NCBI RefSeq assembly: GCF_018350175.1
Contig: NC_058368.1
Span: forward strand, 111,106,001-111,170,000
Length of the DNA stretch: 64,000 nucleotides
From: Felis catus
Lineage: Eukaryota
Direction of reading: 5' to 3'
This document shows, in pieces, positions 14,651 to 52,233 of this stretch. Each line of letters starts with the position of its first letter. The first letter of the stretch is position 1. A program made the position numbers and the translations under genes. The notes below the pieces were generated by a model. That model made no database searches. It saw nothing but the letters and a program-made list of their open reading frames with translations, and was not told where the DNA came from.

Positions 14651-14708
14651 ATGGAAGAGAAGAGGCGAAAATACTCCATCAGCAGCGACAACTCTGACAC
14701 CACTGACA
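14651..14708 (+). CDS. JADE2: JADE2 coding exon 1 (MEEKRRKYSISSDNSDTTD)
   Basis: Acceptor ttttattgcag immediately before ATG; donor A|gtaagg; 58 nt, ends in phase 1. Confidence 0.97.
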
Positions 14709-19800: not shown

Positions 19801-22175
19801 GAGTTGGGGGGGGGGGGGGGGGGGGAGTACCGGTCTCAGTACTGGAGCTGAAGGGACAGGCCCCGGGATTCTTGAGAGGCTGGATTTTTGGTAAAAATGA
19901 ACCAAGTCTGAAGTTGGCCCTTTGGTAGTAGAAGGAAAAGGTAGTGTTGACCCCAAGGACACAGGCTGCCCCCTTCCTCTGTTCTGCCTGCCTATAGGAT
20001 CCCAACAAAGCTGAGATTTGTCGCTTAAGGCTTAAGTCCTGAAGGAGTAGAAGGGATTAGCCTGCCCTGGGAAGGTGGTACTAGTGTATAAACCATGCTG
20101 AGGCCTTGGATTTCTGGCCTGGCTTGTCTGACCAGATGGTATAACCATTATTGGTGCTTAACACTTTGTGGGGCCTATTTCTGAGAATCTGATGGAATCC
20201 CAAAGATTATTCTTTTAAATATTAATACCAGGCCCTCATCCCATCCCACCTCACCCCCAGGAATTCTGACTTAAATGGCCTGGAGTGTAGTCCCAAGTAT
20301 CTGTTCTTCTTTAAAGCCCTTTTGTTGGTCTACTGCCACAGACCTTTCTCCTTAATTTACTAAGACAGGAGGTCCTGGCTTGATCCTTCCTGGAAGGACC
20401 CTGAGGTTGAAGGAGGAAGAGGAGGCTTTCCAGCCTGTTTCAGTGAACTAAGCAAAAGCAGGGAGTGTGGTTGAGGGCAGGCCCCCAGCTGACCCCTACT
20501 CACATAGTGGCCAGGGGGACAGACAGGTTTCCATCGCCCTGGCCGAGCTATGAAGGAGTTCTGGAGGAGAAATGAGGCCAGCCCCCTGGGTTGGAGGCTG
20601 CTGTTTGAGGCTGTGTCTTCCTCAGGCCTGGGCAGAAAGGTAGAAGGAAGGGCAGGCCGAGTGGTGGGGTTTCCCCTCCAGACAGGGTTTTCAGGAAGTC
20701 TGAGTCCCCGGAAATCAGCCAGTGGGCAGGGACATGGGTCTCCAGGACCCAAGAGCTACTGATAATGATTAAACTCAACAAGCACTTGAGAACGCCTGAT
20801 AGGCCCAGCTGGGTGCTAGGGGTACAGAAAATGCAGGCCCTGTCCCCAGGGAACTGGTCCTTTGACTGGCAGCAGGATGCAGGTGCTAAACAGGAAAGTG
20901 TCCGTTATGGGAGGTGCAGCCAGCTTTGCCACTGAGGAGCTCTGTGACTTTGGGCAAGTGACTCTATCTCCCTGAGCCTGCAGGTCGTTATCTGTAGAGC
21001 CCTGCCATGGAGTTTCTGTTCAGTAGATAGGACTGTCCTTTGCTGAGGCCTCTGAAGCCTGAAGGTGGAGGAGATCCCAGAAATAAGTGGAGGTAAAACT
21101 GGCCTCCCTGGGGTCAAAGCCTTGATGGTCCCAGAACAGGGTAGGTAGGAGTTGGGACCTGACCGTCAGCTTCCTTTGCAGGCCCTGGTGACAAATCAGT
21201 ATATCCCTAGAGGAGAGAATAGGGCCTCTCTGCGGGTTCCACAGGGGCCCTTCACCAATGCTCAGCTTCTTGCCCTAGGGGAAGAAGGGGCATGCTAGAA
21301 AAAAGTGATTCTTAATGAACAGTTTCCGTCACCACTGAGGTGTCTGCCAGAACCAGTGTCCGTGAAAGTTCCTATAGAAGTCTCCCCCACCCCTTCTGAA
21401 AAAGCAGCAAGTGAAGAGCAAGGATGAAGCTTATTGGCTTGATCTGTTGTTTCTAAAAATGGGACCCTTCAACCTTGGGTGAAGGCACGGGTAGCCAGAA
21501 TGTGTTGCTGAGATGCAAAACCACAGGATGGATAAGATGTTTTCCTGGAGGAGTACAGGTGCTATGCAGATGTTTGAAATGACAGATTTTATATTAAAAC
21601 AGTGATGGCATATATTGTAACAAAATGCCCATAATCTTGAGAGGTCAAACAGGAGAAATCGAAAAAGGTTTCATGTTTGCCCTGTGGTCTTAAGCTATGT
21701 TTATAGCCAGCGGCTCCTCTGCCGCCCCATGAGGCAGTAAGGCAGCCAGGCGGGCAATGAAGGGGAGCCCTTCCACTGGGTTAAGTGCCTACTTTCTGAG
21801 ACTGTCGCCTCCTTCCTCTGGGGTGGGGGGCAGAATCCACTTCTAGTATAGTTGGAAACACCACTGCTCCCGCCAGCTGGAAATTCCTCCTGGCCTCTGG
21901 GGCTTCTCTTGCAAAAGAAATGTGTGTAATAAATTCTTTAAAGAGCAGGAAGTGCTGTTATCCTTGTGAAAGAGAAAGAGGGTGTGTGTGAGAGAGACAG
22001 AGACAGAGAGAGAGGAGGGGGGAGAAGTGTCTGACCAAATTAACCTAGTGGTAGCTTGGATGGGGCTGGGCAGAGTGTGGCTACGCTCAGAGTGCTTCTC
22101 TGATGTTTTATGCCTAATTTAAGTTTGTTCTTGGCTTGAGATATTTTTATCGTGTTCCAGCCCAAGAAAGAGTTC

Positions 22176-22664
22176 TTTTTTTTTTTCTCATATCAAAGTA
22201 TCCTATTTATTTCAATGGCAAATATAAAGGAATTAAACTACACACTAATAAAAATATTTAATTGTTAAAAATTCAAACAAAAATTCCCAAAAAAGTAGTA
22301 AAGCCAAGGAAATACCCTCATCAATTAATCTCAAAACTTCACTGTAGAAGTAGTCTAAAAAATTTTCATTGCAAAAAAGTTCATATAATGTTATCTACTA
22401 TTATCAGTATTATCGCTAATTACCACTTGATTACATTTTATATCATCTAGTCTAGCACAAGAAGAAAAGTTATTGAAGATCAAAACACATGCATATGCTT
22501 CTTCAGTATCAAAGTATTATCTGTATTATTAGGAACTTCAGGTTTATAAGCAAAGGGTTCTGATCAAATAAACTGACCCAAAGAGTCTTAACAATCCCCT
22601 CAGCCTATGAACTGGTCTTCTTTCTGACTCTAGGCCCTGGCCTCTCTTTTCTTAGAGCATTTTC
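22176..22664 (-). other. Putative L1 3'-transduced segment with its own poly-A
   Basis: Lies between the L1 tail and a second T11 tract (22176-22186); minus-strand AATAAA at 22206-22211; a direct repeat brackets L1 plus this segment. Confidence 0.75.
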
Positions 22665-23327
22665 TTTTTTTTTTTTTTTTAATTAATTAATTAATTAATT
22701 AATTTTAATTTTATTTTTTAAAATTTACATCCAAATTAGTTAGCATATAGTGCAACAATGATTTCAGGGGTGGATTCCTTAGTGTCCGTTACCCATTTAG
22801 CCCATCCCCCCTCCCACAACCCAACTAGTAACCTTCAGTTTGTTCTCCATATTTATGAGTCTTTTCTGTTTTGTCCCCCTCCCTGTTTTTATACTATTTT
22901 TGCTTCCCTTCCCTTATGTTCATCTGTTTTGTCTCTTAAAGTCCTCATATGAGTGAAGTCATGTGATTTTTGTCTTTCTCTGACTAATTTCACTTAGCAT
23001 AATACCCTCTAGTTCCATCCACGTAGTTGCAGATGGCAAGATGTCGTTCTTTTTGATTTCTGAGTAATACTCCATTGTATATATATATCACATCTTCTTT
23101 ATCCATTCATGCATCGGTGGACATTTGGGCTCTTTCCATACTTTGGCTATTGTTGATAGTGCTGCTATAAACATGGGGGTGCATGTGTCCCTTCGACACA
23201 GCACACCTGTATCCCGTGGGTAAATGCCTAGTAGTGCAATTGCTGGGTCGTAGGGCACTTCTATTTTTAGTTTTTTGAGGAACCTCCACACTGTTTTCCA
23301 GAGTGTCTGCACCAGCTTGCATTCCCA
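22665..23327 (-). mobile_element. 5'-truncated carnivore L1 (ORF2 C-terminus, 3' UTR and poly-A)
   Basis: Minus ORF 23088-23312 [29 protein letters not shown]...[19 protein letters not shown] is the L1 ORF2p C-terminus; T-rich tail at 22665-22720. Confidence 0.95.
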
Positions 23328-23481
23328 AAGAAAAAGTTCTTAAAAGAAGAAATATCTGGCTGGTTCCTTGGCAGTATTGCAGTGATTAAAGTACAATGCA
23401 GGCCTCAAATAAGTGGTTTACTTCTTTGAGTCTCAGTTTCTCTGTCTGTAAAATGGGGGTAATATGAATTAGGTGAGGTTA

Positions 23482-23526: not shown

Positions 23527-23652
23527 CACGTACAAAAAGCATTTAGCATGCACCTTGTTTTAACAGGACAATGACTTTTCAACATTAGCTATTGTTTCTA
23601 AAGAGATGAAGTGCTCAGAAAAAGCAATTGTGATTTAAAATGAGGTATTTGG

Positions 23653-23873
23653 AGGGTGCGTGGGTGGCTCAGTCAGTTAAGCATCCAGCTTCACCTCAGG
23701 TCATGATCTCGCAGTCCATGAGTTTGAACCCTGTGTCAGGCTCTGTGCTGACAGTTCAGAGCCTGGAGCCTGCTTTGGATTCTGTCTCCCTCTCTCTCTG
23801 TCCTTCCCCTGCTTGCGTGTTCTCTCTCTCTCTCTCCCTCAAAAATAAACAAACATTAAATAAATAAACAAAC
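23653..23873 (+). mobile_element. Can-SINE (SINEC)
   Basis: tRNA-like head gggtggctcagtcagttaag, (CT)n, A-rich tail; TSD aaaa(t/c)gaggtatttgg at 23637 and 23874. Confidence 0.92.
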
Positions 23874-24215
23874 AAAACGAGGTATTTGGTAGTAATTTCA
23901 CTTGGCTTTTTCAAGACAGACCCTCCATTTTGGGGGAGATTAGGAGGAGGGTGCCACTCCTACCTTTACTCCTAATGTGGACAGAGGTCAAGGAGAGGCA
24001 CTCTTGGCCAGGCACTCTTGGCCAAAGCTGTTTTCATTGGCTTTGGGACAGTGACCAAGACCAGTTCCTAAAGTCCACCTAGAGGGACCTTTCAGTTCAG
24101 CCCCCTGCCTCCACTCTCCCTACTAGACAGGACAGGAAGCTTCAGAGTTTAATCATACTTAGACAAATCCTGGGGTTCATTCATTCATTCATTCATTTGT
24201 TGTAAACCATTTCTT

Positions 24216-48820: not shown

Positions 48821-49318
48821 GTAGGCATCTTCCCTGCCCCCTGCCAGCCACCGCTCAGCGTGCACACTCTCAATGGGCCAGGTCCCAAGGAGGGTTTGTG
48901 TATTCAGGTCCTAGTGGGGGCCACTGGCCCATACACAGACCTTCCAGAACCAGTTAAGTAGGCCAAGTTGGGACCTACTAGGGCCTCATTTGTATGTTGG
49001 TTGGCAAGGAGCCAGAGATGGGAATGTGGGCATCAGGCCTCTCCTGAGGGGGCTTTCTGGTCCACTGGGGATACGTAGGTAGTTCCAGGGCCATAGTGGT
49101 GCAGGAGTAGATTGCGCGTGCACAGTAGCTCTAAGCTGGTGTTGGGACAGGAAGGGGCCAGAAGCTAGAGAGCTTCCCTGAACCCCTGCGTGGCTTCATG
49201 TTGATCCTGAATCAGGCAGCTGCTCCAGAGATGGAAGAGGACCTCTGTGTTCTTTCTCTCTGACCTCATCTGATAAAATTTGGATGCCTACTAGCAGTTT
49301 TTTGTCTGTTTTCTTCTT

Positions 49319-50072
49319 TTTTTTTTAATTTTATTTTTTATTTTTTAACATTTACAACAGTGATTTCAGGAGTAGATTCCTTAGTGCCCCTTACCCATTT
49401 AGCCCATCCCCCCTCCCACAACCCCTCCAGTAACCCTCAGTTTGTTCTCCATATTTATGAGTCTCTTCTGTTTTGTCCCCCTCCCTGTTTTTATACTATT
49501 TTTGCTTCCCTTCCCTTATGTTCATCTGTTTTGTCTCTTAAAGTCCTCATATGAGTGAAGTCATATGATCTTTGTCTTTCTCTGACTGACTGATTTCACT
49601 TAGCATAATACCCTCCAGTTCCACATAGTTGCAAATGGCAAGATGTCATTCTTTTGATTGCCAAGTAATACTCCATTGTATAGATATACCACATCTTCTT
49701 TATCCATTCATCCATCGATGGACATTTGGGCTCTTTCCATACTTTGACTATTGATAGTGCTGCTATAAACAAGGGGGAGCATGTGTCCCTTTGAAACAGC
49801 ACACCTGTATCCCATGGATAAATGCCTAGTAGTCCAATTACTGGGTCGTAGGGTAGTTCTATTTTTAATTTTTTGACGAACCTCCATACTGTTTTCCAGA
49901 GTGGCTGCACCAACTTGCATTGCCACCAACAATGCAAAAGAGATCCTCTTTCTCCACATCCTCGCCAACACGTGTTGTTGCCTGAGTTGTTAACGTTAGC
50001 CATTCTGACAGGTGTTAGGTAGTATCTCATTGTGGCTTTGATTTGTATTTCCCTGATGATAAGTGATGTTGA
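49319..50072 (-). mobile_element. 5'-truncated carnivore L1
   Basis: Minus ORF 49596-50030 ([11 protein letters not shown]...[16 protein letters not shown]...WKTVWRF) is the ORF2p C-terminus; 17-bp TSD ttgtctg(t/c)tttcttctt at 49302 and 50073; highly similar to the L1 at 22.7-23.3 kb. Confidence 0.95.
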
Positions 50073-52233
50073 TTGTCTGCTTTCTTCTTAAACTCTTCCC
50101 GTGACATGTATTTAAGAGATCTGGAAATCTAAGGCCAAAGAATCTCCAGTGTCGCTGTTTTCTGCTAGTTGTGTGGATATTGCCAGACACAGGGCCCTTC
50201 CCAGAGTGTTTACATGTTCAGAAGGGCAATGCTTAACTCAAAAAAGGTCCTCTAATGTAGAATTACATGCAGCTCGGTGGCAAGATATTTTGAGCCAGGA
50301 GCTGCCGCTGCTAGTTCAGCCTCTGGGTCAGGCTAGGCCTGCAGTGGAGAGGAACCAGAGCTGTTGGGCCACCCCCAGAACGAATGACTGAGGACCTGGT
50401 ACCGCCCCACCCTTGTCTGAGCCAAGCTGCCTCATTTGCACTTTGGGATCACCACCTACTCTGGCCCAAGGAACCAGCCCTGCCAAAAACAGGTCCTGGG
50501 TGAGGCCGGGTCGTGTCCATACAAAGGTCAGAGCTTACCATGCATCCCCAAGACTGGCAGCTTCGTGGCTGCCAGAGCTCTCCAGGCTCCTTCTCCTCTG
50601 TTGATTTTTTCAGCGAGTATTAAAACTGAGTGTAGACAGGATGCCAAGCCCTGTGCCGGGTACTGCGGGGCACGCTGCCATGGGCAGAATGGATAGGCTT
50701 CCTGTCTTTGTGGAGCTCACCATCTGGAAAGATAAAGGAAAGTGGTGCTCAAGGGGCTGCAGTTGGCACCAGTGCAGGGACAGAAGTACCAGAGATGGCT
50801 TCACAGCAGTGGTGATCCTGGAGCTATGTGTCTGGCTTCTTAGGACCTCACTGTGGTGAGAGGTCCAGCTGCAGAAGGAGAGGCCCACAATCAGGGTAAC
50901 AGAACGTGGCAAGGCCTATAGTACCCTCAGGCACAGGATTCCAGAAACGAGGTCAAGAGCTAGGTCTGCATCCCCACACTGAATCTGGGGACGTTTGCAG
51001 CTCCTGGAGCTGAGTGGCAGCATCAGGCATCCTTTTGTTCAGAGCGAGACATGGGGGAGAAGACTGGTTTGCCTCTGCCCAAAACTGATGACCCCTGGGA
51101 TGGGCATATGGCTACAAGCATATCGTCAAGGCCTGTCTGGCCGGAGCACTGGAGAAGCCTTCCTGTGGCAGTTATATTTAGGCCATGAACCAGTTGAAGA
51201 GCAGTAAAATTTGGAATCCTAGAGGCTGGAGCTTGTCTTTTTAGAGAAACTGGAAGGAGGCTGGCATAGCAGCAACTTGGGCAAAAGGACCACGTCTCAA
51301 GTGAGGTTGGGGTCTTGCTAGGATCAGACGTGCAAGGTCTTGTAGCCTCAGAAGGAGCTCAGACTTTCCTGAGGGCACTGGGAAACCTTAGAAATCTCCC
51401 TCCAGAGCATGTAGGCAGGAGTGTCATGTCAGAGATGAGGATTCTGAGGTTGCACAGGGGATTAGCAGCACAGCTAGGGAGAGTCCATATCCCTCAAATT
51501 TCTTGTAAACCTTTATCTGAGAAGCGCTCCAGACTCCTGCTGAAAAACTTAGGAGAAGATTTCTGGCAGCTGGGCGTCCCCCTGCAGATGTCCCTCTCCT
51601 GCTCCAGTGTTTTCTGTGGCTCCCTAAACCTATGTGGTCACAGACCAAAAGAATATAAGGGCCAGGTGTGCACCCCGAGTCTGCTATCTGCTGTGTGACC
51701 TCGAGAGCAGACCAAGAAGCCAAGGCAGGAGACTTGCTCATGGGACTGACCACTATGGCTGGACTAGAACCCACATCTCTTGACTCCTCAGATAGTCCTC
51801 AGACTTCTCTCCACATCCATGTCTGGCCGCTAGGCCTAGCATTGAAGGCCCTGACCTGGCCACTCACCTGTAGTTACCCTTTGCACCCACCAGCACTCCC
51901 ACCCCACCCCTACATCTATAGGCCATGTAGATGTCAGACTGCATTCCAGGTCCTGGAGGAGGGTCCTCCACCCACTTTGTGGCCCTGTGCCCTCCTCAAG
52001 GGCAGCAGTAGGCACTTACCTTCTGTTCCCCACCAGCTGTCCCTGACTCACAGGAGCCCCATTTATCTCAGGTCCTGCGGCTCTGAGCCTAGGACACATT
52101 AGCAGGGCAAAGTGACCTGGAAGTTGAGGCACAGGTGATAGAGGACTATCATATGGATGGCCCATAGTGATCTTGGTTTTGACTGAGCTGCTCGGGGTAA
52201 CCGCCTCCCTCCTGCTCTCTCTTTCCCTGGCAG

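Follow-up and report, generated by a model that had tools for sequence, protein, structure and literature searches.

A LINE-1 insertion in a cat JADE-family intron very probably carries a 3′ transduction from a second locus

The window, by which we mean the whole 64-kb stretch of cat DNA analyzed here, contains a JADE-family gene on the plus strand. One of its exons matches JADE1 and JADE3 chains of known structure (E 2.6e-16), and the same exon matches the Pfam family zf-HC5HC2H. The gene is probably JADE2, judging by its N-terminus, which reads MEEKRR at 14651. Within the intron bounded by exons at ~16822 and ~29666 lies an L1 insertion that is antisense to the gene. On the sense strand of the gene, the insertion adds two AATAAA hexamers (22247-22252 and 22567-22572) and three acceptor-like sites, and no read support for any of these was seen in the runs examined. 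This intronic insertion is probably neutral and fixed.

Several other elements are found in the window. About 300 bp to the right of the insertion, at ~23650-23880, is a sequence that is presumably a carnivore tRNA-type SINE, and a perfect 14-bp tandem duplication occupies 23996-24024. An older L1 fragment at ~10-341 is 69% identical to the L1 part of the insertion. A search of the window against Rfam gave no match inside the insertion, and its sole match was to U6 snRNA, a full-length retrocopy within 63672-63818 (minus strand 63704-63810, 114.6 bits) that has a long A-tail and a flanking repeat of ~9-11 bp and for which no L1 partner was noted.

Read along the minus strand, the order of the insertion is TTTT, direct repeat, L1, L1 tail, a non-L1 segment, A11 and the second direct repeat (Table 1). 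The two copies of the repeat, AAGAAAGAGTTCTT (22164-22177) and AAGAAAAAGTTCTT (23328-23341), are identical at 13 of 14 positions. They make up the sole repeat pair of at least 14 bp between 22120-22230 and 23300-23380, and the plus strand of the window contains only two matches to the 14-bp repeat at one mismatch or fewer. Such a repeat arose by chance in 9 of 20000 trials, where the null was two random anchors placed 1164 bp apart. On the plus strand, two T's of the T11 run are common to the repeat, and the tail of the L1 appears as T16 at 22665-22680 and (TTAA)6.5 at 22679-22704. The segment at 22187-22664 has a GC content of 0.30 vs 0.48 and 0.44 in the flanks, carries no long reading frame in any of the six frames and is repeated nowhere else in the window over more than 20 bp.

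Table 1. Parts of the insertion, in minus-strand order
Feature	Position	Strand	Remark
5′ target-site duplication copy	23328-23341	-	preceded by TTTT; endonuclease-type TTTT/AA site
5′-truncated L1, C-terminal part of ORF2 and 3′ UTR	22721-23327	-	607 bp; ORF2p match and likeness to the other L1 of the window
First tail: AATAAA of the L1 (22710-22715), (AATT)n, A16	22665-22720	-	would be the genomic tail of the donor L1
AT-rich non-L1 segment, 478 bp	22187-22664	-	copied from locus B; homology displayed for 22187-22458
AATAAA, 19 nt ahead of the second tail	22206-22211	-	likely signal of the read-through RNA
Second poly(A), with no template in B	22176-22186	-	B goes on with letters that are not A-rich
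3′ target-site duplication copy	22164-22177	-	one mismatch vs the 5′ copy

The marks of LINE-1 insertion by target-primed reverse transcription, namely a duplication of 4-20 bp, a TTTT/AA-type site and a 3′ poly(A), are all present, and the minus-strand 5′ junction reads CTTTT/AAGAAC. The non-L1 DNA sits between two A-tracts, and a single duplication encloses the whole arrangement. The L1 alone has no duplication around it: a comparison of the L1 tail region (22600-22730) with the 5′ junction (23310-23380) gave no repeat of at least 10 bp, one mismatch being allowed. The presence of one outer duplication and no inner one counts for transduction. An earlier note, made from the letters of this DNA, had described the same anatomy of L1, tail, ~480 bp of non-L1 DNA, second poly(A) and 14-bp repeats, together with the endonuclease-type junction, the spacing of the AATAAA and the lack of a duplication beside the L1's own tail, and each of these was found as described. 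On the minus strand, GGG follows both repeat copies (22161-22163, and 23324-23327 as TGGG at the start of the L1), and the 5′ junction may therefore hide a microhomology of 3-4 bases and a slightly longer duplication.

In translation, the L1 part aligns to LINE-1 ORF2p over residues 1145-1223 (E 5.5e-33), and a Pfam search with two pieces of ORF2 returned no family. An in-frame stop lies at 23088-23090. Aligned with the other L1 of the window (49355-49925), the L1 part shows a 4-bp gap and is identical in 526 of 579 columns (91%). This other L1, located within 49302-50089, is of the same type, also lies on the minus strand and is also 5′-truncated, and it served as an internal control. It is flanked by a 17-bp duplication (49302-49318 and 50073-50089, 16 of 17 identical) and ends in a plain tail with a short deletion just ahead of it; the 478-bp segment is absent behind it. 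Because the other L1 has a plain tail, a duplication of its own and no 478 bp, the segment is not the normal end of the subfamily. Nor did it behave as an L1 subfamily 3′ end or a young interspersed repeat: over 22187-22458 only two sequence types at least 84% alike occurred, in both DNA runs. The segment may still contain an ancient repeat.

The second of these sequence types marks another locus, which we call B. Contigs aligned on 22030-22690 were examined for two DNA-type and two RNA runs of the 24 listed, with a possible source run left out, and the contig display drops contigs that match human DNA. Each of the two DNA runs gave six contigs, four identical to the window and two of B type, and the B letters were identical between both runs. 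One B contig, 1050 letters long, differs from 22187-22361 at 12 positions, then departs exactly before 22187 into 875 letters that are unlike the window and not A-rich; the 30-letter consensus of this loose end on the plus strand is CTGTGTAGGTTAATAGGAAATGCAATAGTG. The other is 126 letters long and differs from 22333-22458 at 10 positions. Neither a poly(A) or T-run nor a duplication was present in B at the 22187 break (2/2 DNA runs). Since B continues through this point, the segment is a duplicate whose derived copy is the one in the window, and the second tail arose on an RNA and was not templated, B having no A-run there. We conclude that the 478 bp came from another site by way of a polyadenylated RNA. 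The earlier note had predicted a second locus without the terminal poly(A) in DNA of the same species, which B provides, and its reading of a 3′ transduction is supported by this locus along with the single outer duplication and the two tails.

B and the copy differ at 22 positions in 272 bp, or 8.1% (95% CI 5.1-12.0%); 12 of the 20 listed differences are transitions, and two others, within 22187-22216, the stretch that includes the AATAAA, are not listed. The strand bias expected of APOBEC3-type editing of the copy was not significant (7 vs 2, p 0.18), and this candidate was rejected. Within 22218-22428 the transitions lean toward A/T in the copy, as if the copy were changing faster than B, again without significance (9 vs 3, p 0.15). 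Two further candidates were rejected, internal priming on a genomic A-run because B is not A-rich beyond 22187, and a serial transduction joined at 22459 because the L1 strand has no A-tract at that position.

Over 22459-22664, no B-type contig was displayed in either DNA run, the depth was that of one locus and a lone window-type contig runs unbranched from 22429. Full homology of B at 8% divergence would require that 22459 itself be a mismatch and that no run of 30 identical letters follow, for which a simple simulation gave ~0.018. If B is homologous over this part, its contig must have been lost to the filter or to assembly simplification; a structural break in B exactly at 22459 looks unlikely too. 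An L1 would be expected upstream of B. Exact-pattern scans of metagenome contigs with stretches common to the copy and B gave 0 loci, and an empty allele, recognizable as a loose end at the duplication, was seen in 0 of 2 DNA runs. The depth of B was below that of the window type, at ~17 vs 26-27 in run X13 and 17 vs 21-23 in run X14, which could reflect composition or a sex chromosome.

We suggest that the insertion is very probably a partnered L1 3′ transduction. According to the part of PMC4859970 drawn on here, L1 transcription often passes the weak signal of the element, and the resulting insertions carry two A-tracts and a copy of the donor's 3′ target. In the cat, transcription of an L1 at locus B would have run past the element's AATAAA and tail and taken in 478 nt of flank, and the RNA would have been cleaved and polyadenylated 19 nt past an AATAAA, presumably with that hexamer at 22206-22211 as the signal; the spacing and the added tail fit this step. 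The L1 ORF2p would then have nicked TTTT/AA in the JADE intron and primed on the new tail, an established mechanism whose hallmarks are present here, so that copying presumably ran through the 478 nt and the old tail and then 607 nt into the L1 before truncation. The result would have been a unit antisense to the gene and bracketed as a whole by the 14-bp duplication, and copy and donor would since have drifted ~8% apart. The segment begins AAGAAAA, which consists of A's of the tail plus GAAAATG (its start is also given as AAGAAAATG and AAGAAAATGCTCT), and GAAAA begins 0.13% of positions; this start fits a donor's own 3′ target copy, a weak point in favor of transduction.

The divergence of the copy from B resembles that between the two L1s of the window (~9%), as expected if the L1 and the segment arrived together. 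For an age, the corrected distance of 0.086 was halved and divided by 1.6e-9 or 2.22e-9 per year, where the available part of 10.1101/2024.04.06.587788 gives the first rate as 0.81e-8 per generation with five-year generations and the second as a blanket value. The insertion would be about 27 million years old by the first rate and 19 by the second, with an interval of roughly 12-40 million years. A date of roughly 20-27 million years precedes the radiation of living cats, and thus the insertion should be common to all of them.

The main rival is a chimera with L1 at the 5′ side and mRNA at the 3′ side, in which no L1 was ever present at B. A host mRNA ending in B would have provided the poly(A) on which reverse transcription started, with a later jump to the polyadenylated end of an L1 RNA, or the two RNAs would have been ligated; template switching and RNA ligation are both known routes to L1 chimeras in the account of PMC13174262. 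We consider this improbable, and it survives because the upstream side of B is unseen; contigs that match human DNA are dropped, and a conserved 3′ UTR could be among them. An AT-rich segment and a canonical AATAAA at typical spacing would both suit an mRNA end, whereas the segment start, AAGAAAA, is like an endonuclease target. The chimeras catalogued in the portion of PMC13174262 available to us have the non-L1 RNA 5′ and the L1 3′, and the order is the reverse here, L1 and then foreign DNA, with no foreign RNA 5′ of the L1.

The RNA data also bear on this rival. Ten RNA-like runs contained 0.98-1.00 of the words, which represent window-type letters; the other three metatranscriptome runs, with shares of 0.24-0.48, were left out of the evidence. 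In the one run of this kind that was aligned, a gut RNA run (X17), all four contigs were window-type, and because some of them cross from the intron flank into the insertion they fit pre-mRNA or DNA of the insertion locus. Of 12.9 million single-cell reads, six could be placed: one was cleanly window-type and the other five fitted an A/T-rich patch in part, with a B-type letter at 22265 in one of these five. Clean B-type RNA was thus absent from the two RNA runs, and we saw no sign of B as the end of an abundant mRNA, a weak point against the chimera from two samples. The same RNA contigs, being window-type, led us to reject RNA as a sign of an expressed donor. Three reads of run X24 end in A-runs at 22283, where the partial reads behind these ends fit over ~33 bases, are loose on both sides and are mostly <90% alike; intronic polyadenylation of a JADE transcript at the plus-strand AATAAA at 22247 was rejected on account of this poor fit. 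One gut RNA contig (depth 2.2) doubles back by 137 bases over 22063-22199, with five additional letters, and is probably a library artefact. Were the chimera reading true, carnivore surveys would mistakenly count L1/mRNA chimeras of this reverse order among the "parentless" transductions.

It could also be that B is not the source and is instead a sibling insertion with a longer transduction from a third, master locus, in which case the cat copy would still be a 3′ transduction. B extends at least 875 letters past 22187, the filter may hide contigs and, for dog, PMC13141329 reports several insertions sharing a transduced source, but the two sequence types found over 22187-22458 make a third locus very improbable. 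Least probable is that two insertions occurred, an orphan transduction or retrocopy and a later L1 at its 5′ edge: endonuclease sites can be used again, and by eye AAGAA-AATG-CTCT past the L1 tail loosely echoes AAGAACTCT of the duplication, but there is no repeat of at least 10 bp at one mismatch or fewer around the L1 alone and both parts are of similar age.

We return to the partnered 3′ transduction as our preferred reading. So understood, the insertion is an ordinary by-product of L1 transcript read-through, a mechanism that is already well known; L1 3′ transductions are textbook in human and dog. It adds one more case of an L1 duplicating its flanking DNA, with a donor-type locus confirmed, and may serve as a dated and practically homoplasy-free marker for feliform phylogeny and as a tag of an L1 active about 20-27 million years ago. 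Outside most subscription papers and supplementary repeat tables, we found no literature on felid L1 transduction or on JADE2 with LINE-1.

Among known systems, the closest is human partnered LINE-1 3′ transduction, for which the original papers are said to be those of Moran (1999), Goodier (2000) and Pickeral (2000). The cat insertion shares with the human cases, as set out in the part of PMC4859970 used here, the two A-tracts, the one outer duplication, the endonuclease site, the downstream AATAAA and a unique flank with a tail-less counterpart at another locus. It differs in that the genome is of felid type, the insertion is old, 8% from its donor and not polymorphic, and the donor L1 was not seen. 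The U6/L1, Alu/L1 and mRNA/L1 chimeras described in the accessible part of PMC13174262 likewise hold L1 and non-L1 sequence in the same orientation in one duplication; their foreign RNA is 5′ of the L1, whereas here the foreign part is 3′, past an intact L1 tail.

Canine L1_Cf also offers a carnivore L1 with a mappable 3′ flank and a donor that is often "parentless", in the sections of PMC7980453 and PMC13141329 available. In the first study, 18 of 1121 dimorphic L1s had identifiable transductions, 17 of these 18 without an adjacent L1 (PMC7980453), and in the later one ~1.8% had transductions, with an adjoining L1 for 3 of 27 and none for 24 of 27 (PMC13141329). A missing donor L1 would not, then, refute transduction, and the expectation of a full-length L1 at the donor in the earlier note would seem too strict by these counts. 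The canine cases are dimorphic, were mapped at 95% identity or above with inserts at least 70% L1, and make up ~1.6-1.8% of insertions (PMC7980453, PMC13141329, in the parts cited). In contrast, the cat copy is ~92% identical to B and only ~52% L1 (607/1164 bp), so the dog pipelines would miss it, and old, mostly non-L1 transductions of this kind escape dog-survey filters set at 95% identity and 70% L1.
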